From Candidatus Woesearchaeota archaeon (lineage in GTDB: Archaea > Nanobdellota > Nanobdellia > Woesearchaeales > GW2011-AR9), in the NCBI GenBank assembly GCA_018670095.1, contig JABHRR010000075.1, positions 1 to 52,154 of the forward strand: DNA of 52,154 nucleotides, in the 5' to 3' direction. Positions within the stretch are counted from its first letter, which is position 1. The number at the start of each line of letters is the position of its first letter. Made by a program: the position numbers and the translations under genes. The notes under the pieces were generated by a model. That model was not told the origin of the DNA, did not search any database, and worked only from the letters and a program-made list of their open reading frames with translations. Positions 36,527 to 49,459 of the stretch are shown one piece after another.

Positions 36527-36644
36527 AGCCCCTGGTGGGAATTGCACCCACGACCTTCAGCTGTCTGAAATCAAAAATTTCTGAGCAAATCTCACTCAGT
36601 TCGATTTTACAAGGCTGACGCAATAGCTACTATGCTACAGAGGC
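36527..36644 (-). tRNA. tRNA-Thr(UGU) with 45-nt intron at 37/38
   Basis: Acceptor GCCTCTG/CAGGGGC. D-arm GCAT-AGTAGCTA-TTGC. Anticodon stem TCAGC/GCTGA, loop CTTGTAA. T-arm GTGGG-TGCAATT-CCCAC, U73, then CTTTTT. Confidence 0.8.
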
Positions 36645-37394: not shown

Positions 37395-38012
37395 ATGGCT
37401 CAATCTATAGATTTCTTATTTTTGGACGATCAAGAATGTATCTTGGAATTACTAGAAGCAAAAGCAGATTTATTAGAATTATCTTACAAATCTTTTGCTA
37501 AAGGAAAAGACGCATTACTTTACTTATCTTCAACAGAAAATTTTCCTAAAGGAGGATTTTCAGACATGAGGCTTCCCGATGTTTCTGGTTATTTAGAAGA
37601 AGGGAGTACAGAATCTTTAGCTCCTGAACAAATGGGTGTTCTATTTCGTAAAAATGAACGACAAATGAATTTTAGATATGTTACTGGCCATATCTCTGAA
37701 AGAGACCGTCAAGTTGCTGATAGAACCGGTTGTAAAATTTTGTGGAAAGGTAGTGCTTTGTTCTTAACAAAAGTTGAATCTATCATGAGTTCTGTTTACG
37801 TTCAAAAGTTGATTGAAAATAATTTATCACTTGTAGCTAATCGAGATGAACCAACTCATTTTCCTCTTAAAACTTTAAACTATTTTAATCGCCATTTAAC
37901 TCCTGAACGTTTAGAAGAAGTTTGTGATAATCTTGTTGAAATTGCTTTTTTAGAAGGGGTTCAGAAAGTTGAAGAAGACAAATATTACTGTTTAAGAGAC
38001 CATTCTAAATAA
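37395..38012 (+). CDS. CheY-like receiver-domain protein (orphan, divergent)
   Basis: LFLDD acidic pair and FSDMRLPDVSG phospho-acceptor context. No kinase partner or clear output motif seen. Confidence 0.45.
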   Translation: MAQSIDFLFLDDQECILELLEAKADLLELSYKSFAKGKDALLYLSSTENFPKGGFSDMRLPDVSGYLEEGSTESLAPEQMGVLFRKNERQMNFRYVTGHISERDRQVADRTGCKILWKGSALFLTKVESIMSSVYVQKLIENNLSLVANRDEPTHFPLKTLNYFNRHLTPERLEEVCDNLVEIAFLEGVQKVEEDKYYCLRDHSK

Positions 38013-38322: not shown

Positions 38323-39000
38323 ATGAAAATGTCTGGTTTTAAAATGGATGCAGAAATTGCTTACTTTATTGGAGTTCTTCACTCCGATGGTTGTATTTAT
38401 CGTTTTAATGATAAAAAAAGAAAGAGGATACAAATACGGTTAAACTTAACCATTGGTCAGAAATCATTACCTATGGCTTCAGAATTTAAGAGAATATTAT
38501 TTAAGCGATTTGGTAGGACAGTTAATATCAGAAAAGTCCCTAACAAGATTTCTTATATGGTTCAAACATCTATTAATAGGCTTTATTGGTTATTTAAACA
38601 ATGGGAAGACAAATCTATTCCTTTCATTATTTCAAATGACTCCGTTCTTTTTGGATCTTACTTGGCAGGAATCATAGATGGTGATGGTTATGTGAAGCTT
38701 AAGAAACGAGATGGTAAAACTTTCGCATGTCAAATTAAAATATCTGCTGGTTATATTCACTATCAATTATTGGAACAAATAAAATTCCACTTGGGTTGTG
38801 GAGCACATATAGAAAAAGATGTTAATAAAAAAGGGATGGGTTACAGCCATTGTTTTCTTATTTCAAAAAAGAATTATCGATATATTCAGCATTTAATCTT
38901 GCCTTACATAAAAATGCCTTATAAAAAAGAAAGAATTAAAGAATATATAAAAAAATGGGCCTACAGGGATTCGAACCCTGATTTCGGCCATAATCAATAA
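38323..39000 (+). CDS. Double-motif LAGLIDADG homing endonuclease (free-standing)
   Basis: IAYFIGVLHSDGCIY and YLAGIIDGDGYVK. The last 45 nt are antisense to the 3' part of the tRNA gene at 38956..39097. Confidence 0.75.
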   Translation: MKMSGFKMDAEIAYFIGVLHSDGCIYRFNDKKRKRIQIRLNLTIGQKSLPMASEFKRILFKRFGRTVNIRKVPNKISYMVQTSINRLYWLFKQWEDKSIPFIISNDSVLFGSYLAGIIDGDGYVKLKKRDGKTFACQIKISAGYIHYQLLEQIKFHLGCGAHIEKDVNKKGMGYSHCFLISKKNYRYIQHLILPYIKMPYKKERIKEYIKKWAYRDSNPDFGHNQ

Positions 39001-39756: not shown

Positions 39757-40512
39757 TTATTTTTTAGCCTGACTCCATAAAAGATTAAAGAACACTTTGT
39801 AAGTTTGTGCAAAGTTTTCGTCTTTGATTAATAATCCATAAGGTTCTTTTCCGTAAGTAATGAGGAAAATGTAATCATTTAAAACCCCATACTCCGTTCT
39901 CGTAGAAATATCAAGATATCGTACTTCCGTGTGAGGCATTTTCGCACGAACAGAACCCCATTTCTTACTATTATTGTTTATGATTATTTTTAATTTAATT
40001 TTGTCTTTTATTCTTTTTTTATGAACAACATCAAGAAAAAAGCCCTCGATTTTACTAAATGATTCTAGAGGAGCAGAAGCGATGTAATATTCATCTCCAC
40101 TTTTCCACGAATTAATTATTTCTGTGTAGAGAGATTTTATTCCTCTAATACCAGAGTAATATTTGAAATCGCTTAATTTAGATAATTCGGTTGGTTTAAC
40201 TTTAAGTTTGGAAATGAAACCTAGCAAATGCTCTTTTTCTTCCTCTATTTGTTTTTCTTTTTCTTCAAATAGATTAGCTAAGGAATCCGGATCAGAAGCT
40301 CTGAAGACTTTAACGTTATTGACAATCTTAAAATTTACCAAGCCTTTCTTTGAGAGGCTGTTTAAGATAGTATAAATCTGAGAACTTGGAATTTTTGTTC
40401 GTTCACATATTTTTCCTGTTTGACTTTCTCCATGTTGTTGGAGATCTAAATAGGTTAAAGCTTCTCGTTCTGATAATCCTGCTGATTTAAGGGCTTCTAG
40501 GTTATTGTTCAT
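39757..40512 (-). CDS. TrmB-family transcriptional regulator
   Basis: wHTH LEALKSAGLSEREALTYLDLQQHGESQTGKICERTKIPSSQIYTILNSLSKKGLV. Confidence 0.8.
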   Translation of the reverse strand: MNNNLEALKSAGLSEREALTYLDLQQHGESQTGKICERTKIPSSQIYTILNSLSKKGLVNFKIVNNVKVFRASDPDSLANLFEEKEKQIEEEKEHLLGFISKLKVKPTELSKLSDFKYYSGIRGIKSLYTEIINSWKSGDEYYIASAPLESFSKIEGFFLDVVHKKRIKDKIKLKIIINNNSKKWGSVRAKMPHTEVRYLDISTRTEYGVLNDYIFLITYGKEPYGLLIKDENFAQTYKVFFNLLWSQAKK

Positions 40513-41095: not shown

Positions 41096-41313
41096 TATTG
41101 GGTTTTAGTAGTAGGAGTCAGGCTCTTCGCAGAAGGAAATAATGTCAAGCCGCCAACTTTAAAGTTTTTGTTTTTTTCAACAAAATATTTCAATCTCAAA
41201 ACTGCAAATCGATAAAAAATCTTCTCGGCATGTTTATCATTTAATTGCACTATCCTAATGAGTATAAGTCAGAAAGATAAACAAAAAAAATGAGGGTACT
41301 TCCTCATCAAAAT

Positions 41314-41324
41314 CTCGCTAAAGG
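41314..41324 (+). promoter_or_regulatory. CTCGCTAAAGG box 1
   Basis: Exact 11-mer 19 nt upstream of ATG 41343. Hairpin ATGAGG-N6-CCTCAT at 41290-41307. Confidence 0.65.
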
Positions 41325-41342
41325 GGGAAGTTCTAAAATATC

Positions 41343-41810
41343 ATGTTGGGGTGGAAAGAGAAGCTAAATCAAACAGAGGAAAATGTTTCCTTAGAAACAA
41401 TTGCAACTCTCCAAGATCGGAAGTATGAGCGGTTAGCAGTTTATTCAGATATCGCTGCCGCTGGAGGATTTACAGTTGCTCTAGCTGCTTGTGACACTTT
41501 CCCCTATAACATTTTCTTGGGATTGGGTTTAGCTGTTTCCGGAATGAGTGCAATCATGGGGGACAAATATTCTAACCAAGACTCTGTTGAAGTTATTAAA
41601 AAATTTCAACCTGTAGCAGGGACATTAGCAGCATGTCTTGCAACAGGATATTATTTCCTCGGTGATAATCAAATGGGTACAGTCATGGCTGGCTTGTCTT
41701 TAGCTTGCTATACTTCAACTCTTGCTAATATTCTTCGGGGAAAAAAAGAAACTGATGACCCTCAGTATCGGGGACTAGTGGGGATCCTAAATAAAAATGA
41801 CCCAGATTGA
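41343..41810 (+). CDS. Gly/Ala-rich membrane protein
   Basis: 3-4 hydrophobic helices. 155 aa. Confidence 0.55.
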   Translation: MLGWKEKLNQTEENVSLETIATLQDRKYERLAVYSDIAAAGGFTVALAACDTFPYNIFLGLGLAVSGMSAIMGDKYSNQDSVEVIKKFQPVAGTLAACLATGYYFLGDNQMGTVMAGLSLACYTSTLANILRGKKETDDPQYRGLVGILNKNDPD

Positions 41811-41846
41811 AACTAAAGTTCGGATGTTAATCCATCATTAATATAA

Positions 41847-41857
41847 CTCGCTAAAGG
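41847..41857 (+). promoter_or_regulatory. CTCGCTAAAGG box 2
   Basis: Exact 11-mer. Its 3' end runs into aggtgat (SD-like), 9 nt before ATG 41866. Confidence 0.65.
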
Positions 41858-41865
41858 TGATTTGA

Positions 41866-42750
41866 ATGAAAAAAAAACTAATTAACTTAATTGCGGCAAC
41901 AACACTTCTTTCTGCTACAGGATCTGCTTGTGTGCCTATGCAATTTGTTTCTGTAGATAATTATGGTTCTGCTCAATATTCTGAAGAAAATATAACTTTA
42001 GAAAATCTTATTTCTTCAACGTACTGTTTGCTTTCAGAGAGAGATTATAGTGATAACGCTGGCAATACTTTTAATGAGGGTGGATACGGTTCCAGTTTTG
42101 CTTTTCGCCAAGTTGATGGCTATTCATATTTAATTACTAATCAACATGTTGTTGGAGAGTTAGAACAAAATCTTAATGGGAAAATATACAATCGAAATAA
42201 TGTCAATATCAAAATAATCGATTCAAAATTTGACAATAATAAAGATGATGATATCCCTTTAGAAATTGTTTTTGAATCAAAAGAGTTAGATATGGCTATT
42301 CTCAGAACAGAACAGAAACTAAATTTCCTTCCTGAAAAAAATATTCAATTAAGTTCCGATTTAAAGTACGGCGAAGAAGTTTATTTGGTTGGTTACCCTT
42401 TAGGAATGTTTCCTGCCGTAACTGAAGGTATTGTTTCCAATCCGGGACTTTACCCTTTCCATTATGAATTTGAAGATAAAGTAAATGGTTTAACCGTACC
42501 AAATTCTTCCAGAAAAGTTTTGGACCTTTCAGCAAATCCCGGAAATTCTGGTGGCCCTTTATTTGTAAAAAAAGATCATCAATTATACTGGGCAGGAATT
42601 ATTAGTGCTTATTTTATTCACGGTGCCGGCGGTCCTTTCTATAAAGAAAACTCTGGACTAGCCATTGCGATGGACTCTAACATTATCAAAGATATTGCCG
42701 ATTATATAATTATGAATATTGATGACTACATTGGGGAATGTAAAATGTAG
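41866..42750 (+). CDS. Secreted/lipoprotein trypsin-like (S1) serine protease
   Basis: LLSATGSAC. Triad contexts TNQHVV, LDMAILR and GNSGGPLF. No PDZ seen. Confidence 0.8.
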   Translation: MKKKLINLIAATTLLSATGSACVPMQFVSVDNYGSAQYSEENITLENLISSTYCLLSERDYSDNAGNTFNEGGYGSSFAFRQVDGYSYLITNQHVVGELEQNLNGKIYNRNNVNIKIIDSKFDNNKDDDIPLEIVFESKELDMAILRTEQKLNFLPEKNIQLSSDLKYGEEVYLVGYPLGMFPAVTEGIVSNPGLYPFHYEFEDKVNGLTVPNSSRKVLDLSANPGNSGGPLFVKKDHQLYWAGIISAYFIHGAGGPFYKENSGLAIAMDSNIIKDIADYIIMNIDDYIGECKM

Positions 42751-42756
42751 ACTTTG

Positions 42757-42805
42757 GTCCTGCCGTTTTATCCCACCCTGGGAACGCTAAAGGTTACGGC
42801 AGGAC
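42757..42805. repeat. Perfect 10-bp GC-rich inverted repeat GTCCTGCCGT-N29-ACGGCAGGAC followed by T5
   Basis: Read directly. The spacer contains CCCAcccTGGG and a degenerate box aCGCTAAAGG (42784-42793). Confidence 0.7.
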
Positions 42806-42813
42806 TTTTTAAT

Positions 42814-42824
42814 CTCGCTAAAGG
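42814..42824 (+). promoter_or_regulatory. CTCGCTAAAGG box 3
   Basis: Exact 11-mer 3 nt before ATG 42828. Confidence 0.65.
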
Positions 42825-42827
42825 AAA

Positions 42828-43064
42828 ATGACTCTAGACAAAAAGTTTGAGCAACAGTTAACTGATTTTCCTAGATTCTACAAAATAAATTGTAACGGGT
42901 GCGAGGGAGAAATTGAGTATGTGCAGCAACTAAGAAACGAATCGGAGAAATATAATTTTCGTTATGAGTATGCTTGCACTGATTGTGGTTTGATAACTGA
43001 TTATCGAGAAATGAAAAACGAACTGCAATCAAAATGGCCGTATAACATTATTTGGGGGAAATAA
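42828..43064 (+). CDS. Zinc-ribbon protein (operon gene 1)
   Basis: CNGCEGE...CTDCG. Confidence 0.55.
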   Translation: MTLDKKFEQQLTDFPRFYKINCNGCEGEIEYVQQLRNESEKYNFRYEYACTDCGLITDYREMKNELQSKWPYNIIWGK

Positions 43065-43065
43065 A

Positions 43066-43884
43066 ATGGGAGAACTATCTGATAAAATTAAAGAATGGGA
43101 ATCAATGAAAAAGGCTGCTGCAAAAAATGAGTTAAAGCCAACACTGAATTATCAAAAGTTTGATGTTGATAAACTAAGTATCATGCTTCTTGGAGACGAA
43201 CATATCGGTTCAAGATATTATGATAAAGATATGCATCAAGAAGTTTTGGAACATTGTTTTGAGAACAAAATTCCAATAATCTTGATGGGTGACCAATTAG
43301 AAACTGCTACCAGAGATTCTGTTGGTTCTGGAGTTTATGAACAAGACGAAATACTTGAACAACAATTGGAACATTTTATGCATCTTTACAAGCCGTTAGC
43401 AGAAAATGGATTAGTTCTTGGCTTGCATCCCGGGAATCATGAAAATCGTGTTTATAATCAAGCGGGATTAAATCTATCTAAAATCATGGCTAAACAATTA
43501 GACGTGCCATATTTCGGTTGGGGAAAGATGCATTATTTCCTTGTAGGAAAGCAGGGTTATACTATCTACACCACGCATGGTGCTTCTGGCGCAAGAATGC
43601 CGCACACCAAAATTAAAGGGGTAATAGATCTTGCCAATTTAGCGGAAGCAGAAATTTATGCGATGGGCCATTTGCATCAGCTGAGTCATCATGTGAAGAA
43701 CTTCTACTCTGCAGATTTAAGAAATAAAAAAGTTATCGAAGCGCAGAAACATTTCATTCTTACTGGTTCTTACTTGAACCATTGGGGAAGTTATGCGCAT
43801 ATGAAATCTCTGGAGCCGATGCGAAAAGGTAGTCCAATATTGAAACTAAATGGAGATAAACATGAAATCCGGGTGAGTTTATGA
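43066..43884 (+). CDS. Calcineurin-like metallophosphoesterase (operon gene 2)
   Basis: GDEHIG, GDQLE, GNHENR, TTHG, GHLHQ. TAAAATG junction. Confidence 0.8.
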   Translation: MGELSDKIKEWESMKKAAAKNELKPTLNYQKFDVDKLSIMLLGDEHIGSRYYDKDMHQEVLEHCFENKIPIILMGDQLETATRDSVGSGVYEQDEILEQQLEHFMHLYKPLAENGLVLGLHPGNHENRVYNQAGLNLSKIMAKQLDVPYFGWGKMHYFLVGKQGYTIYTTHGASGARMPHTKIKGVIDLANLAEAEIYAMGHLHQLSHHVKNFYSADLRNKKVIEAQKHFILTGSYLNHWGSYAHMKSLEPMRKGSPILKLNGDKHEIRVSL

Positions 43885-44180
43885 GCAGAGAAAAAACTAA
43901 AAGAGAGATAGAAGAACCTTTAACTACGCGCTTAACAGAAGGGATTACTAATTGTCTCGTTAAAAAGAATTATCAGGGTGATGGTTATGATAAACAAGGG
44001 AATTTGGTACATTATTGTGCTTTCTTTAATGTTAGTAACCAATATCAACCAATGGATTGTGGTTTTCGCGGCGAGCAATTAGAAATTCTTGTTGGTGATA
44101 AAAGGGAACTGAACCATCATTATCTTTCTTTTTACAAATGTTGTAACATCAAAAATAAAAAAAAGAGGTGGCGTAGATGA
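43881..44180 (+). CDS. Hypothetical Cys-containing protein (operon gene 3)
   Basis: ATGA overlap with gene 2. 99 aa with a basic tail KNKKKRWRR. Confidence 0.5.
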   Translation: MSREKTKREIEEPLTTRLTEGITNCLVKKNYQGDGYDKQGNLVHYCAFFNVSNQYQPMDCGFRGEQLEILVGDKRELNHHYLSFYKCCNIKNKKKRWRR

Positions 44181-44386
44181 ACGAATACAAATCTTTGCAA
44201 GAAGTTGTTGAGGAGTTTCATTACCTTAACGTTCCTGTAAAAACTGAACTTGGAGAAATGGATGTGTCTTTGGATTATGATGAATTTACAACTTACCTTT
44301 TTAGTGAAGAAAAAGGCTGTCAATATTTTCCTGATGGCAACGTCTACATTTTCTCTGCTAAAAAGTATTTGGAGAATGATCATTAA
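44177..44386 (+). CDS. Hypothetical acidic protein (operon gene 4)
   Basis: ATGA overlap with gene 3. 69 aa. Confidence 0.45.
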   Translation: MNEYKSLQEVVEEFHYLNVPVKTELGEMDVSLDYDEFTTYLFSEEKGCQYFPDGNVYIFSAKKYLENDH

Positions 44387-44388
44387 AA

Positions 44389-44493
44389 ATGGGACGTAAA
44401 AAGAAATGGATGCAATGGTACGACTACTTGTCTCCTGCAGAAGAAGGTAAAAGAAAAAAAAGGGTGAAAAAAAATGACTCGCAAAAAGAATAA
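44389..44493 (+). CDS. Possible 34-aa basic peptide (operon gene 5, below ORF-track cutoff)
   Basis: ATG 2 nt after the previous stop. MGRKKKWMQWYDYLSPAEEGKRKKRVKKNDSQKE*. Overlaps the next start by 20 nt. Confidence 0.3.
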   Translation: MGRKKKWMQWYDYLSPAEEGKRKKRVKKNDSQKE

Positions 44494-44791
44494 ACATGAC
44501 CAAGCTGTAGATGAACTTGAACTTTTAGTTAGAGACCAATACCAAATTGTGATGAAAAATGTTGTTTATCGCATGCCACCTTCTCGAAGAGATTCCGGAG
44601 AATTAGATTTGGTAGGAATTAACGGTGATTGTTGGGATATTTATGAAGTAAAATCTAATGATGGTTATCAGAAAGCAGTAAGTCAAATGGAACGTGCTTA
44701 TTTGTTATTAAGTGATTGTGCTCAAATTTGTACGTTTTATTATTCCGGTAAGGAGAAAAAAATTATTCCTATACATTATTCTAAAAACTAA
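44474..44791 (+). CDS. PD-(D/E)XK-like (Hjc/YraN-type) nuclease-fold protein (operon gene 6)
   Basis: GELDLVGINGDCWDIYEVKS gives an E..D...E.K pattern. Weak assignment. Confidence 0.5.
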   Translation: MTRKKNKHDQAVDELELLVRDQYQIVMKNVVYRMPPSRRDSGELDLVGINGDCWDIYEVKSNDGYQKAVSQMERAYLLLSDCAQICTFYYSGKEKKIIPIHYSKN

Positions 44792-44794
44792 AAA

Positions 44795-45919
44795 ATGGCT
44801 AACTCTAAAAAGAAGAGAAAGAAAAAGAACAAAGAAAAAGAGGAAGAAGACTTAGAAGATTTAGGGGATTTAGATGATTTATTTATAGAAGAAGATGATG
44901 AAATGTCAGATGAGGAAGCGAAAAAGTTTGTTAAAAGTATTGCCGATAAATTATACGTTCAAGAACAGGTTATTGAAGGACAAAGAAAAATTATTGAAAA
45001 ATACCAACAACAAATTGATCAATTATCTCAACCCTCTTCTTCATTAAAAATTGCTTTAAGTCAAGAAGAAACTTCTTATGCAGACATTGGTGGGTTAGAT
45101 TCAGTTTTAGAAAAAATAAAACATTTTGAGTATGGGATTGATTGCCCTTATGCTTATTCTTCATATGGGATTGATCCTCCGAAAGGATTGTTGATGTATG
45201 GCCCTCCCGGTACTGGGAAAACGATGATTGCTAAAGCGATGTCGAACGAACTTGGTTGTTGGTTTTTAGAATTGCCGTTAAGTTTGATTATCAGCAAATA
45301 TGTGGGGGAGGCAGAACAAAATTTGGAAGCGGTAATAGAATCTGCGAAAAAGAAATATCATCAAACAGATCGGAAAGTAATGTTGTTTGTTGATGAAGCA
45401 GAACAGATGTTTAGAAAGAAAGGTAGCCATAATGGCCACGAAGTTGTTGATCGCTGTGTTAACGTTTGGCTGAGAACAATGGATGGCATGGGCAGTAATG
45501 AGGGATTGATCTTTGTTGCCGCTACTAATTACTTAGAAAAGATTGACGACGCTTTACTTCGTGCAGGAAGATTTGATTATGTTGTTGAGATACCTAAACC
45601 TAACTTATCTGGAGTAGAAGATATTTTTATGAAACAAATAAACATTAAAGAAAAGAAAGCGAATAGAGAAATCTATTCTCTTACTAATTTAGAAGGTTTA
45701 TCTGAAATGATGTATGCTTGCAGAATGACCGGCGCAGATATTGCCAATGTTTTGAAACAAGCATCATTTAACCAAATTCAATATTTCATGCAATCTGCTG
45801 CTAGTGGCAAACCAATGTGTAAAGAAGAATTAATGATTCGTGACCAAGATTTGATTAAAGTCATTAGTTTATATGATCGAGTTAAAGAAGAGAAGAAGTT
45901 CGTTGGCTTTAACGTTTGA
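44795..45919 (+). CDS. Classic-clade AAA+ ATPase, single module (operon gene 7)
   Basis: GPPGTGKT, MLFVDEAE, ATNYLEKIDDALLRAGRFD. Highly charged N-terminus KKKRKKKNKEKEEEDLEDL. Confidence 0.85.
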   Translation: MANSKKKRKKKNKEKEEEDLEDLGDLDDLFIEEDDEMSDEEAKKFVKSIADKLYVQEQVIEGQRKIIEKYQQQIDQLSQPSSSLKIALSQEETSYADIGGLDSVLEKIKHFEYGIDCPYAYSSYGIDPPKGLLMYGPPGTGKTMIAKAMSNELGCWFLELPLSLIISKYVGEAEQNLEAVIESAKKKYHQTDRKVMLFVDEAEQMFRKKGSHNGHEVVDRCVNVWLRTMDGMGSNEGLIFVAATNYLEKIDDALLRAGRFDYVVEIPKPNLSGVEDIFMKQINIKEKKANREIYSLTNLEGLSEMMYACRMTGADIANVLKQASFNQIQYFMQSAASGKPMCKEELMIRDQDLIKVISLYDRVKEEKKFVGFNV

Positions 45920-46121
45920 TTTACCTTTCCGCTACAAATCCCACCAATTCTGCGTTATAATAAAAATACCCATCAACAAGTTTATATCATTCTTTCACTT
46001 ACCTCTCAGTATTAGTAAGAAGAATATATTTTAGCGGGGTATAAGGGGTGGTAATACTAATCACTTCTTTTGCAGTTTAGAAAGTTAGAAAGGAGAAACA
46101 AGTTTCTCCCCCTAACAAAAC

Positions 46122-46132
46122 CTCGCTAAAGG
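46122..46132 (+). promoter_or_regulatory. CTCGCTAAAGG box 4
   Basis: Exact 11-mer 2 nt before an ATGGTT that stops after 2 codons. The real ORF, also starting ATGGTT, begins 64 nt later. Confidence 0.6.
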
Positions 46133-46198
46133 TTATGGTTTAGAAATCAAATTAATATTTAAATTTTTCGTAACAATTGTATATACCATCACTTTCGT

Positions 46199-48472
46199 AT
46201 GGTTCCCAGACAAAAAAGACAAAAAAGAATAAAACATCTAGATGAAATAATTTTAGATTCATTAAAAGATTTATCCAGGACCTTACCTCCGGAACCTCAT
46301 CCAAAATTAATCCAAATTTTTGATTATGCTGCTACTCATCCGCCAAAGAAAAGATATAATGATTATTTTTCTTCTGTTAATCAGTTAGCAATTAATCTTT
46401 CTGATTACGAACGGTTAAAGAACGAGTTTGCCGAAAGTGTTGATTGGGCTTATGGTATTTTTTTATCTTGGGTTCATGATGCTGAGGATTCAAAAGTAAA
46501 TTATGATTCACAATCTTTGGTTAATGATATTGATTCATCTTTAGAGGGAATAAAGAAAGCGTTAACTTTACAGGGAAATTCTGAGGAAGTACAATCATTC
46601 TTAACAGAAATAAATGGCAGATTAAAAAATCCTATTTTTCCGCCCCAGTTTACTCGCCTGGGAGAGATTGCTACAGAAACTTCTTATGTCTACAGAAGTT
46701 GTGTTGTTGAGAAAGGTAATCCAGAAACTTATCAATTATGGGAACAATTTCGGAGAAAGTTTGTCATGGGAACATACCCAGAAGTAGTTTCTGCTTTAGC
46801 AAAATTGCCCCGTTATGTGCCCTCATCACTAACAACATTTATTTCTGATGCTATTGAAAATATTGGTGATGCTGAACATTTAACAGAACTAATGAGGACC
46901 ATATCTGAACATTATCATTTGTTTAACAATAAAGAGATTAACAATTTCCTAAATGGAATCAATAAACAATATCCTGCCACTGCTGAAATGGCAGTTAAAC
47001 AACTTAATCAAAGAATGCAATTTCGCGCTTCTGAGAAAGAAATTCTTGCTAGAGAAATCGAAGAAACTAGTGAAAAAATTTATCTTTTAGAATTGGATGA
47101 TCCAGAACCCTACATCCGTAAAAAAGAACATGATATCTCTCTTAGTTTAGGTCCAGAGAAAGCATACGAATTTAAAAAAAATGTTAGGATCTTTGAAGAT
47201 GTTGGTATTGGCAGTTTAACTACTTTTATGAACCTTTATTGTAAATTTTTAGAGAAAAAACTTTCTGAAGAAGATGAACGACATTTTGGTTCGATGTTGG
47301 GAAGTTTAAGTGTTTATTCTAAAAGGAAACAAGAAAATAAAACTATCCTAGATAATATTTTAAGTAAAGGCCCTACTAAAATAAATTCTTCGTTAAGAAA
47401 GAAACTTAAAACAGAATACGATGCAGAAATAACTCATGTTTGGGATTTAAGACCATTACAAGCAAATCTTTATTCAACTTATCATGCTTTTGCTAATTAT
47501 CAAGAGGTAGTCAATCGGAAATTTGAAAATAAGAAATATACTGGGTTTCTTGATTTCTTATTAGAAAAAGATTATTTAGAAGAAGATATTTTAGTTGTTG
47601 CTGGCGGTTGTGGTTTGGCTAAAAAGGAAAGTTTGTTAGTTAAACGACTTAGAGAAGAAGACAATCGTCAAGCAGAACTTTTATTGATTGACAGAAATGA
47701 ACAAGTTACAAATTTGGCTTTGTTACATTGTGTTCAAGAAGGACTTTATGATCTTTCCGATTTGCCACCGGTACTTAACATTGATCTCACTAAAATTTCT
47801 CCAGAACATTTCAAAGAACTTCGAGATTTAATGGATCGACAAATCTTGCTTACTATGTTTGGTGGAACTCCATTTAACCAACCGAACATGTGGGAAATGT
47901 ATGCCCGGGAAAGAGACATTTTTGCACTGCGAAAGTATGGTCCTCATTATGACCAAAATATCTTCACAAGAACATCTGCCTGGATAAAAAGTTTAATCGC
48001 TGAAGAAAGATGGATGATTAAAGTAAGAGAACATGCCAATAAACCAGATTTGTTAATCACAGAAGGAGATTCACGAAAAGATTTGAGTTATTATTGTCAG
48101 CCATCTTCAATTGAATTTTTGAATAAAGGTATCGCTAATCGTTATCAAATCTATCCAGACGATTTGTTATCAAAAAACCCTTTAATTACAATTGATGATA
48201 GTGAACAAAAAATGAAATCGTTTTATTTGGTTCGGGAAGATCACCATTTAAACAAGAATATTCATCCTAACGCTCAAGCCATTTTAGTTATTGATTCCGG
48301 AACTTTAGATGAAGATAAATTTAATAGCATGATGGCCAACATTGGCTGGCAGAATGATTTCTTTTATCATGAAAATTCAATTATTGCTGTTAGTCAAGTA
48401 GCTAAACCAGTGAGGCCATATTTGGGATTGAGGCATTTCGTTTCAGATCATGATTTAATTAGCAGAACTTAA
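46199..48472 (+). CDS. 757-aa protein: unknown N-terminal part of about 440 aa plus SAM-methyltransferase-like (EgtD/Methyltransf_33-like) C-terminal half
   Basis: VVAGGCGLAKKESLL, ELLLIDRNE and LTMFGGTPFNQPN recall ELGxGxxxK...GSTIGNF. Confidence 0.65.
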   Translation: MVPRQKRQKRIKHLDEIILDSLKDLSRTLPPEPHPKLIQIFDYAATHPPKKRYNDYFSSVNQLAINLSDYERLKNEFAESVDWAYGIFLSWVHDAEDSKVNYDSQSLVNDIDSSLEGIKKALTLQGNSEEVQSFLTEINGRLKNPIFPPQFTRLGEIATETSYVYRSCVVEKGNPETYQLWEQFRRKFVMGTYPEVVSALAKLPRYVPSSLTTFISDAIENIGDAEHLTELMRTISEHYHLFNNKEINNFLNGINKQYPATAEMAVKQLNQRMQFRASEKEILAREIEETSEKIYLLELDDPEPYIRKKEHDISLSLGPEKAYEFKKNVRIFEDVGIGSLTTFMNLYCKFLEKKLSEEDERHFGSMLGSLSVYSKRKQENKTILDNILSKGPTKINSSLRKKLKTEYDAEITHVWDLRPLQANLYSTYHAFANYQEVVNRKFENKKYTGFLDFLLEKDYLEEDILVVAGGCGLAKKESLLVKRLREEDNRQAELLLIDRNEQVTNLALLHCVQEGLYDLSDLPPVLNIDLTKISPEHFKELRDLMDRQILLTMFGGTPFNQPNMWEMYARERDIFALRKYGPHYDQNIFTRTSAWIKSLIAEERWMIKVREHANKPDLLITEGDSRKDLSYYCQPSSIEFLNKGIANRYQIYPDDLLSKNPLITIDDSEQKMKSFYLVREDHHLNKNIHPNAQAILVIDSGTLDEDKFNSMMANIGWQNDFFYHENSIIAVSQVAKPVRPYLGLRHFVSDHDLISRT

Positions 48473-49459
48473 TTATTTGATTTTCTTAATCTCTGGGAAA
48501 TAATCTACAACATATTCTTTATTAACAACAACTGTTCTGTAATGTCTAATTAATTGCCCAAAATTTCTTCTTAACTCTTTTAGATTTTTTCTTAACTCGC
48601 TACTACTTCTAACCTGAACTTCAAACTCTAAATCTGACCTCCCAATCGCTTCCGTAACGTAAGTTACGTTTCTGTTCAGTTTCAGATATTCTTTTAATCT
48701 TAATCTTACTCTGGGATTAACGTCAGCCAATTTTATAAATATTTTATAATTCTGATAACCTAATTGGCCAGTATCAATCTTTGGCCTGAAACCCACAATA
48801 ACCTTCTTTTCTTTCAAGTTTTTTATTCTCTGCTTGATTGTGTTTGGGGCTACGTTAAGTTTGTTAGCCATGTTTAATAGCGGTTCTCTGGCGTTCTTAG
48901 AAAGAAACCATAATATTTGCAAGTCTGTGTTATCTAAACAAACAGTTTTAGTTTTACCACCAATAACTCTCTCTAAAAGATCATTCTGATCATAAATGTA
49001 ATTGTTCATGTAATGATGAATTTGTGTTATAATGGTAACAAAACTATCTTGGAAATAACTGCCGTGCTTTTCTAAAATTTGATCAAAAATTTCTTTGAAC
49101 TCAAAAACATTTTTTGCCCAAATTAATACTGCTAAATCGTACGTTTCTTCTAGAAGAATTACCCATCCTACAGATTTTAAATTTCTAAGAAAATGTAAGA
49201 TTTCTTTTTCTTTCTCAATGTCAACACCTTGAAATCTGATAAAAACTCGAAAGACCATATATCCTAATTTTGAATTGTCAATGATTGCATAAAAACTTCT
49301 GATAATTTTTTGGTCAACTAACCTTTTAATTCTGTAATTGACCACTTCTTTTGATAATCTTGTCTTTTTAGCGATGATTGAGTTTGCTTGTCTGGCATCT
49401 TGATCGAGGCAGTACAAAATAGCTTTATCTTTTGCATCAAGACTAGAAGTAGTGGGCAT
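48473..49459 (-). CDS. Tandem (fused double) Lrp/AsnC-family regulator
   Basis: Two HTH units, DKAILYCLDQDARQANSIIAKKTRLSKEVVNYRIKRLVDQKII and DLQILWFLSKNAREPLLNMANKLNVAPNTIKQRIKNLKEKKVI, each followed by a RAM-like region. Confidence 0.8.
   Translation of the reverse strand: MPTTSSLDAKDKAILYCLDQDARQANSIIAKKTRLSKEVVNYRIKRLVDQKIIRSFYAIIDNSKLGYMVFRVFIRFQGVDIEKEKEILHFLRNLKSVGWVILLEETYDLAVLIWAKNVFEFKEIFDQILEKHGSYFQDSFVTIITQIHHYMNNYIYDQNDLLERVIGGKTKTVCLDNTDLQILWFLSKNAREPLLNMANKLNVAPNTIKQRIKNLKEKKVIVGFRPKIDTGQLGYQNYKIFIKLADVNPRVRLRLKEYLKLNRNVTYVTEAIGRSDLEFEVQVRSSSELRKNLKELRRNFGQLIRHYRTVVVNKEYVVDYFPEIKKIK

Follow-up and report, generated by a model that had tools for sequence, protein, structure and literature searches.

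The subject of this work is a stretch of 52,154 nucleotides from a Candidatus Woesearchaeota archaeon (contig JABHRR010000075.1), hereafter the window, and within it a short sequence word that punctuates a cluster of genes. The co-directional cluster (41343..45919, + strand) codes for a 155-aa membrane protein, a 294-aa trypsin-like secreted lipoprotein (the protease of the cluster), a 78-aa Zn-ribbon protein, a 272-aa metallophosphoesterase (MPE), three small proteins of 99, 69 and 105 aa and, last, a 374-aa AAA ATPase; the Zn-ribbon gene is the first of a seven-gene run that ends with the ATPase. The word is the 11-mer CTCGCTAAAGG. A pattern search of the window finds exactly four exact copies, all on the + strand, with starts at 41314, 41847, 42814 and 46122 (boxes 1 to 4), and no further copy at zero or one mismatch on either strand. 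An initial annotation had listed these four copies, found none elsewhere in the 52 kb and held them to be beyond chance, and it was right on each count: an order-2 Markov model expects 0.03 copies per 52 kb, and CTCGCTAAAGG is the sole non-low-complexity 11-mer that reaches at least four copies in the window. The four copies are all intergenic and confined to 4.8 kb. Two imperfect relatives, a degenerate copy ACGCTAAAGG at 42784-42793 and an inverted partial copy TTTAGCGG at 46030-46037, are present as that annotation had indicated.

Three of the boxes sit just ahead of genes of the cluster. Box 1 (41314..41324) lies 18 nt ahead of the ATG of the membrane protein gene (41343), box 2 (41847..41857) 8 nt ahead of that of the lipoprotein gene (41866) and box 3 (42814..42824) 3 nt ahead of that of the Zn-ribbon gene (42828). 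Box 4 (46122..46132) has no adjoining gene start: it is followed at 66 nt by the ATG (46199) of a gene for a 757-aa protein, and some 17 nt downstream of it lies the TATA-like AAATTAATATTTAAA (46149-46163), the conserved house-type promoter of that gene. The idea that every box stands 2-19 nt before a start codon is thus borne out for boxes 1-3 and fails for box 4, where the supposed start (ATG 46135 GTT TAG) opens a stub of two codons that is not conserved in relatives, the next real open reading frame (ORF) beginning at 46199. The 3' end of the word had further been suspected of doubling as a Shine-Dalgarno (SD) sequence, and its last GG does run into GGTGAT at box 2, where it overlaps the house SD, and into GGGGG at box 1. 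Alignment of the four sites gives nothing in common past the 11-mer except an A-rich 5' edge, with A at -2 and at -3, and we reject the view that the box belongs to a longer repeat, be it a miniature inverted-repeat transposable element (MITE), a repetitive extragenic palindrome (REP) or a duplicated segment. Nor is it translated, as part of a gene or as a leader peptide: no consistent frame runs through the copies, a TAA stands directly before box 2, and relatives do not keep the ATG of the hairpin at box 1. In the window (42748-42831) a frame does remain open for 26 codons past the protease TAG, through the hairpin and box 3, to end at a TGA that overlaps the Zn-ribbon ATG; this may be chance.

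Eight further lineages carry the cluster (L006/L031, L007, L008/L009/L059, L010, L011 together with L012, L030, L032 and L015/L016/L021, where L-numbers designate related loci). All eight have the box at the corresponding places, and the sole variants are TTCGCTAAAGG, CTCGCTAAAAG and CTCGCTAGAGG. In anchored alignments of six to eight lineages, two lineages agree on average at 0.97-1.00 of the positions of the box and at 0.40-0.50 of those in the 25 nt ahead of boxes 1-3, and the identity of the proteins of the related loci goes down to 36-57%. Box 1 is kept in L030, L031, L059, L010 (as CTCGCTAAAAG), L012 and L015. Box 2 has the prevailing form CTCGCTAAAGGTGATNTGAATG in six of seven lineages, L012 deviating with TTCGC... 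and ...TCAATG. Box 3 is near-invariant as CTCGCTAAAGGAAAATG, exact in six of eight lineages, with one additional A in L030 and TTCGC... in L012. The most distant case is telling: L015 retains the box though its membrane protein is only 36% and its protease 49% identical to those of the window, and a non-homologous gene follows its box 3, with CTCGCTAAAGGAAAATG still intact. In several lineages unrelated, partly GC-rich palindromic DNA has been substituted upstream, ending at the A-rich edge of the box and leaving the box untouched. A pooled profile has A without exception at -2, in 24 of 28 instances at -3 and in 26 of 28 at the third position past the box, and the 8 nt upstream are almost devoid of G; on its 5' side the box is always bordered by an A-rich, G-free tract. 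At six of six independent positions the orientation of the box is that of the downstream gene. To judge from these alignments, the box is a clear phylogenetic footprint, evidently under strict purifying selection.

Two observations accompany this conservation. A fifth, one-mismatch box, CTCGCTAGAGG, stands ahead of the MPE gene in one lineage (L010:9981-9991; L032:1723-1733), which apparently shows that boxes can be gained at further cistrons. The GC-rich palindromic element, for example GCATGTCAGGGCACGGCGCC or ATGCGCCTCCATTGGCGC, precedes either box 2 or box 1, depending on the lineage (L030:3060-3150, L012:8130-8220, L031:3620-3680, L010:8700-8760, L007:200-260); it looks like a mobile, REP- or MITE-like hairpin in a genome of 33% GC.

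The word is as private to the cluster as it is conserved. House gene starts in the window have a TATA of the AACATTTATAA type some 26-35 nt before the ATG, or the SD GAGGTGA 8-10 nt before it; among about 50 other starts, including those of SD-led operon genes, none is preceded by the box. Beyond the cluster, the flanks of L009, L010, L012, L015, L030, L031 and L059 have no exact copy and just two near-copies, each with one mismatch, at L010:18373 and at L059:2927 (minus strand). We therefore set aside a generic SD or house ribosome-binding site, because only the terminal GG (with TGAT at box 2) is SD-like and CTCGCTAAA precedes 0 of about 50 other starts; the initial annotation had named such a generic SD or initiator context as what would undo its proposal, and neither the window nor the available flanking sequence of the relatives has the word in that role. 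Its notion of an element-specific cis signal is upheld by a word that is invariant in eight lineages and absent both from those ~50 starts and from the relatives' flanks. An unbiased scan for 8-mers common to at least three upstream regions, run over the 40 MPE-related loci that reach 5 kb, gave this box, the second box described below, plain SD-like words and nothing else, and no third class was detected in the other MPE loci (L020, L022-L024, L035-L109). For either element, in the window and in the loci bearing the second box, Rfam 15 gave no relevant match at gathering thresholds or at E<=1-5, and we found no description of the motif in the literature.

The second box belongs to a sister lineage. 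We call clade A the loci with CTCGCTAAAGG and clade B those with GCAGACTTCCA, namely L025 and L026 (contigs of 250 and 636 kb from Woesearchaeota metagenome-assembled genomes, MAGs) and the metagenomic L055 and L058. Related at the level of the MPE (56-59% identity for L025/L026), they hold a reordered core of a small PD-(D/E)xK protein, the MPE, the AAA ATPase, Zn-ribbon proteins and a membrane-anchored trypsin-like protease. CTCGCTAAAGG is absent from all four. In its place GCAGACTTCCA(ACA), with the variants GCTGACTTCCA and GCAGGCTTCCA, occurs four times per cluster, each copy 18-40 nt ahead of a start codon. RNA folding puts all eight boxes of L025 and L026 within hairpins; the core CUUCCA is fully unpaired and enclosed by at least 12 pairs in six of the eight copies, an arrangement that only about 9% of random windows drawn from these loci attain. 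Each copy has a stem of its own (AGAUGC/GCAUCU, AAGAGG/CCUCUU and AAAGAC/GUCUUU, for example), and several G-U pairs in them are C-A mismatches on the opposite strand. At the element ahead of the MPE gene, the closing stem shows covariation, AGAAAGAGC/GCUCUUUCU in L058 against AGAAAAAGC/GCUUUUUCU in L055, and it is maintained across a structured loop insertion of about 100 nt (L055:1614-1760, L058:27-175), extra hairpins by which a regulatory RNA domain may have been enlarged. Two copies reach as far as, or into, the stop codon of the gene before. Because an unpaired core is held in hairpins, the stems vary, G-U pairs and covariation are seen and stop codons are overlapped, the clade-B element of L025, L026, L055 and L058 is, on this comparative signature, a transcribed and structured RNA leader, with the properties expected of a structured cis-regulatory RNA hairpin.

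Around the clade-A boxes RNA structure is more varied. A hairpin had been announced ahead of each box: the three that were listed do lie where they had been placed, box 2 has an upstream hairpin of just 4 bp, and the general enrichment is modest, an upstream hairpin of at least 7 pairs accompanying 71% of 24 clade-A box instances and 45% of random windows. Ahead of box 1, RNA folding gives ATGAGG(G)-N-(T)CCTCAT (41290..41307, + strand), where 88% of cells pair over six lineages, with wobble substitutions and G-U pairs possible on the sense strand only. An alternative stem (41298..41331, + strand) joins ACTTCCTC (41298-41305) to GGGGAAGT (41324-41331), its loop enclosing box 1: 97.6% of cells pair across six lineages, and sliding the partner lowers this to 38-68%. 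In L030 the two arms have changed to match and the stem is longer by three pairs (GCTTCCTTAC/GTAAGGAAG; as RNA, GCUUCCUUAC/GUAAGGAAG), and the fold of L015 gives an enclosing stem of 13 bp. The two structures are mutually exclusive, the 3' arm of the upstream hairpin being the 5' arm of the enclosing stem. Box 1 would then sit between an anti-SD-like arm, ACUUCCUC (41298-41305), and an SD-like arm, GGGGAAGU (41324-41331), and the former may alternatively be captured by the upstream AUGAGGG, making a two-state switch (anti-anti-SD, anti-SD, SD-like) that could be set by a trans-acting factor. Such a switch at box 1 is plausible, the covariation being too sparse to serve as proof. Ahead of box 3 the window has a 10-bp hairpin, GTCCTGCCGT/ACGGCAGGAC, followed by TTTTT (42757..42805, + strand; -29 kcal/mol), whose loop holds the degenerate box ACGCTAAAGG; unrelated hairpins take its place in L007 and L010, and L015 has none.

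Between the gene of the AAA ATPase and that of the 757-aa protein are two conserved blocks on the + strand. Block I opens with a house-type B recognition element and TATA, AGTTTATATC (45979..45988), conserved in six lineages and matching the house promoters. Within an AU-rich stretch there follows an anti-box, TTTTAGCGGG (46029..46038), complementary to CTCGCTAAAG with G-U allowed and the only zero-mismatch complement of CTCGCTAAAG in the window; in the minimum free energy fold it pairs with box 4. The pairing is kept in L008/L059 and L030, L031 retains the 7-nt core TTAGCGG and L010 has one mismatch. The hairpin AAGGGGTGGT-N7-ATCACTTCTT with its U-run (46043..46071) resembles a terminator; 60 of 60 cells pair across six lineages (slid controls, 40-78%), with one compensatory change from U-A to C-G and three invariant G-U pairs, which form on the sense strand only. 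An additional convergent gene stands between the AAA gene and Block I in L030, so that Block I is an independent unit. The segment at about 46011-46071 looks like a small RNA of some 60 nt, a candidate that might use its 5' part to pair with the boxes or, in cis, with box 4. The clade-A helices near box 1 and the Block I hairpin seem to be kept by wobble or compensatory changes that work on the sense strand only. Block II brings the hairpin GTTAG-aaa-GGAGAAAC-aa-GTTTCTCC-cc(c)-CTAAC (46084..46116) directly upstream of box 4, whose upstream flank has an identity of 0.96 over six lineages and exceeds the neighbouring proteins in this respect; box 4 included, no non-coding stretch of the locus is better conserved than Block II (0.96-1.00 identity). 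In L011 an insertion of about 150 nt separates the two blocks (L011:2920-3085), ending in the inverted repeats GTTATTATAAAA/TTTTATAATAAC and with a long stem, GTGCTTATGTG/CACATAAGCAC, inside, in the manner of a MITE.

Is the box a piece of promoter or a piece of leader? In archaea the TATA element is canonically centred some 24-27 nt upstream of the transcription start. Box 2, at its fixed 8 nt from the ATG and with an A/T tract directly 5', has the centre of this tract about 24-25 nt from the ATG, which fits. Box 3 is 3 nt from the ATG in seven of eight lineages (4 nt in L030) and its tract is centred only about 19 nt away, so that a canonical start would fall within the ORF; in L015 it begins 2 nt past the protease stop codon, which leaves no room for a promoter and means that the box cannot sit between a TATA and a transcription start. 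The arrangement that the initial annotation had put forward, with the box between a TATA and a leaderless start, accordingly survives for box 2 and not for box 3, nor for box 4, which is upstream of a separate TATA. Box 2 apart, the boxes do not have the layout of an archaeal core promoter. A conserved block, AAAACTGCAAATCGATAAAAAATCTTCTCGGCATGTTTATCATT (window 41197-41243), is found 70-110 nt ahead of box 1 and can still be made out in L015 (TGCAAATCGATAAAAAT). This block is likely to be the promoter of the first unit with a palindromic ATCGAT operator, in which case the hairpin and box 1 would lie in the 5' untranslated region. Taken together, spacing, abutment to a stop codon, asymmetry of the word and uniform orientation argue that boxes 1 and 3 at least are transcribed and that their function is tied to the region of the start codon.

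These features lead us to a reading to which we grant an even chance, that CTCGCTAAAGG is an RNA operator private to the cluster, set in leaders and between cistrons at the translation-initiation regions of the first three units, with a conserved copy beside a candidate small RNA. An RNA-level signal had been one alternative in the initial annotation and is now the favoured one. The box would stand in the 5' leaders of the first two units and at the intercistronic junction before the third. Boxes 1-3 would abut the ribosome-binding region, the last GG joining SD-like purines 3-18 nt before the start codon, and a dedicated trans-acting factor would bind the word as single strand, so as to control the access of ribosomes or to cleave the transcript in all those units together. 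The cluster would then be a small post-transcriptional regulon. We infer both that the clade-A box acts in RNA, on translation or on processing, and what may read it.

Our first preference for a reader would be a protein encoded by the cluster itself. In both classes every box-bearing cluster codes for the protease, the MPE, the AAA ATPase and the small PD-(D/E)xK protein; each cluster also has a membrane protein, with no similarity detected between those of clade A and those of clade B. Among them the PD-(D/E)xK protein (105 aa, 44474-44791, + strand) might be the best candidate, standing in the core of both box classes and strongly diverged. Its AlphaFold2 model (predicted local distance difference test, pLDDT, 80) suggests a minimal PD-(D/E)xK nuclease fold, with matches to the AddAB nuclease domain, the R2 endonuclease, the bunyaviral cap-snatching endonuclease, Cas4 and Hjc, and it belongs to a very small family. 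It is only 26-32% identical between the classes, a divergence compatible with a changed specificity and not evidence for one. The second preference would go to the Block I candidate small RNA (~46011-46071), with the anti-box in its 5' part. Pushed further, the two could be combined into a self-contained RNA addressing system of DPANN archaea, where most units of a virus-related cluster carry an operator word (clade A) or hairpin (clade B) at the ribosome-binding site, to be read by the cluster's own PD-(D/E)xK protein as a sequence-specific endoribonuclease or RNA binder akin to RegB; in clade A the anti-box small RNA would modulate this reading, and operator and reader would have co-diversified into at least two specificity classes. 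We hold this larger scheme to be doubtful.

Several facts weigh against an RNA operator. No protein of the cluster is recognisable as RNA-binding. Metatranscriptomes of the same study have zero reads for the locus. A uniform hairpin-plus-box structure was looked for in clade A and rejected, no single common fold being found, and the covariation counts in this clade are statistically weak, the sequences being few and closely related. Extension from clade B to clade A would be by shared gene context, not by homology of the elements. As for the small RNA, the anti-box is degenerate or lost in L011 and the whole block is absent from L015; when duplex energies of the candidate were computed against 56 5' regions the box sites ranked 1, 3, 6 and 7, with AU-rich decoys scoring similarly, so that the ranking is uninformative. 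The small RNA cannot, for these reasons, be the universal reader. Lastly, two of the four sites look much like DNA sites: the layout at box 2 (A/T tract, box, 8 nt, ATG) is exactly what is expected of a repressor operator between a TATA and a leaderless start, and box 4, without an adjoining start codon and just upstream of a TATA, has the typical position of an activator site.

The main rival is accordingly a DNA operator, which we consider possible and rather unlikely. The double-stranded box would be bound by the tandem Lrp/AsnC protein encoded downstream (48473-49459), by the AsnC-type protein of L015 or by a Zn-ribbon protein; it would repress the recruitment of RNA polymerase between a TATA-like tract and a leaderless start and, at box 4, activate from upstream of the TATA. 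The A-rich, G-free tract on the 5' side, with its ~24-25 nt to the ATG at box 2, is in keeping with this, as are the neighbours: an Lrp/AsnC gene adjoins the cluster in the window, L009, L010, L031 and L059, and the AsnC-type gene of L015 has TTCGCTAAAGG upstream, which looks like autoregulation. Nonetheless the tracts are poly-A-like, unlike the house TTTATA type, and the distance at box 3 is too short, not to mention its abutting a stop codon in L015. The word is asymmetric and all copies have the same orientation, so that it lacks the dyad by which an operator of the Lrp/AsnC or TrmB type would be recognised, although a fused Lrp with two helix-turn-helix domains could read an asymmetric site. 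Of the two neighbouring regulators named in the initial annotation, TrmB (39757-40512) is, like the upstream 166-aa protein, not a conserved neighbour of the cluster in relatives, hence a poor candidate; the tandem Lrp is a conserved neighbour in most clade-A lineages, and yet a homologue is present in L022, where no box was found, and absent from the box-bearing L015. A DNA operator also leaves the clade-B hairpin with its variable stems unexplained.

A quite improbable alternative dispenses with a regulator: the box would be an extended ribosome-binding element, paired with or read by the small ribosomal subunit, for example by a segment of 16S rRNA outside the anti-SD facing CUCGCUAAAGG, and would favour efficient or coupled initiation. 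The fixed spacing to the ATG at boxes 2 and 3, the merging of the 3' GG with the SD (GGTGAT) and the intercistronic positions all suit it. It does not account for the other ~50 genes of the window, SD-led operon genes included, that do without the word, or for box 4 away from any start codon; nor would a conserved rRNA partner be expected to allow the unrelated sequence of clade B. Still less credible is a specialised promoter or initiator class, with the box as part of a core promoter read by the basal machinery or by a variant TFB or TBP. There is one box per apparent unit, always in the same orientation and, in the window, with a hairpin or terminator-like element ahead of each; against this, boxes 1, 3 and 4 lack a suitably spaced TATA, a start ~25 nt past box 3 would be inside the ORF, box 3 of L015 and boxes of clade B lie at stop codons, and an ordinary house promoter follows box 4. 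Equally hard to believe is a DNA junction, a cassette boundary for recombination or shuffling in the way of the regulatory cassettes of T4-type phages, or a target of the PD-(D/E)xK and metallophosphoesterase nucleases: gene content does change exactly at boxes (the gene after box 3 in L015, the unrelated sequence swapped in ahead of boxes 1 and 2), the two clades have their genes in a different order with a box kept at each unit, and two nuclease-fold proteins are encoded, but recombination alone would not preserve 11/11 identity over such divergence, while orientation and spacing to the ATG point to expression and the G-U pairs of clade B favour RNA.

Two proteins of the cluster have matches among viruses or defence systems. 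Its MPE matches phrog_7339, and viral contigs hold homologues at 57-67% identity, none of them with a box; one of these contigs also carries a Phage_Mu_F gene. A viral origin of the locus was rejected: the 17-mer of box 3 gives only three matches in IMG/VR, all unrelated, and the locus is not in that database. The window bears intron-containing tRNAs, its close relatives are Saanich Inlet MAGs labelled Candidatus Woesearchaeota, and from its gene order the locus is evidently a stable chromosomal cluster, syntenic with argS/lrp. For the AAA ATPase (44795-45919, + strand) the best match in a defence library is IetA. The IetAS anti-phage system is a two-gene unit of the IetA AAA ATPase and the subtilisin-like protease IetS; our cluster is not one, since the ATPase matches IetA models at E 1e-29 with only 89 bits for an NCBIfam cut-off of 510, and the protease is a trypsin-like secreted lipoprotein that is not adjacent to the ATPase. 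Sequence searches of the PDB with the 105-aa, 272-aa and 757-aa proteins returned zero matches. The MPE (window 43066-43884; L030, L031, L059, L013, L014, L017) is 92-98% identical among lineages, neighbouring genes only 57-90%; in L030 the figures are 98% for the MPE, 64% for the Zn-ribbon protein and 83% for the AAA ATPase. This reflects either extreme constraint or a recent exchange of the MPE gene alone.

Other neighbours deserve a mention. The 757-aa protein (46199-48472) has no Pfam, PHROG or PDB match and contains a GxGxG-like VVAGGCGLA motif in its C-terminal half. Its gene is convergently paired with that of the tandem Lrp/AsnC (48473-49459), which is 98-100% identical between lineages, and the same pair occurs in a boxless MAG labelled Nanoarchaeota (L022:7739-12647). 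Further away, LAGLIDADG-type ORFs (37395-38012, 38323-39000) adjoin an intron-containing tRNA (36527-36644, minus strand); we see no link between them and the boxes.

To return to the RNA operator that we favour, its nearest analogues depend on what is compared. For mechanism they are the translational operators of phages: the coat-protein operator hairpin of MS2/R17, the RegA operators of T4 and the targets of T4 RegB, which cuts GGAG in the ribosome-binding sites of early genes. There too a short RNA word or hairpin at the ribosome-binding site of several genes of one element is read by a factor encoded by this element, for joint shut-off or tuning, and the clade-B element shares the hairpin with a conserved loop beside the SD. 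They differ in that the host is here an archaeon, coat protein, RegA and RegB all lack a homologue, the box of clade A is linear and translational action is what we infer. For position the analogues are operators between TATA and start in archaea (TrmB at the TGM motif, LrpA, Ss-LrpB, MDR1 and Phr), like which the box lies 3' of an A/T tract and 5' of a possibly leaderless start, with Lrp/AsnC genes adjoining; those operators are dyad-symmetric and located at promoters, whereas the box is asymmetric, found at junctions within operons without room for a promoter, and has an RNA hairpin as its counterpart in the sister clade. For organisation we are reminded of the promoter early stem-loop (PeSL) cassettes of T4-type phages, in which a repeated stem-loop with an expression signal flanks genes of a shuffled, virus-related set and genes are swapped at the module; PeSLs are, however, bacterial sigma-70 early promoters in phage genomes, and the box has no promoter consensus, its hairpins are mutually non-homologous and its locus is chromosomal. 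The Csr/Rsm regulons with their decoy small RNAs likewise have the same RNA word in several leaders and, as in Blocks I and II, a copy or complement in an adjoining candidate non-coding transcript, and the nut sites and the boxB-boxA of rrn operons have a hairpin and then a conserved single-stranded box. From both our case differs by the lack of a CsrA, N or NusB homologue, by unrelated sequence and by a candidate small RNA that carries the complement, not copies. Membership in any of these systems is unsupported.

To our knowledge almost nothing is known of gene regulation in DPANN, archaea that are uncultivated and have minimal regulatory repertoires. The present work adds two candidate RNA motif families, both absent from Rfam, and it delimits a conserved Woesearchaeal module made of a secreted protease, a metallophosphoesterase shared with viruses, a minimal nuclease and an AAA ATPase, for which the boxes can be used as tracers in metagenomes. 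A word private to one cluster, together with the covarying hairpin of clade B, provides a concrete and testable case of coordinated, probably post-transcriptional, control in DPANN.

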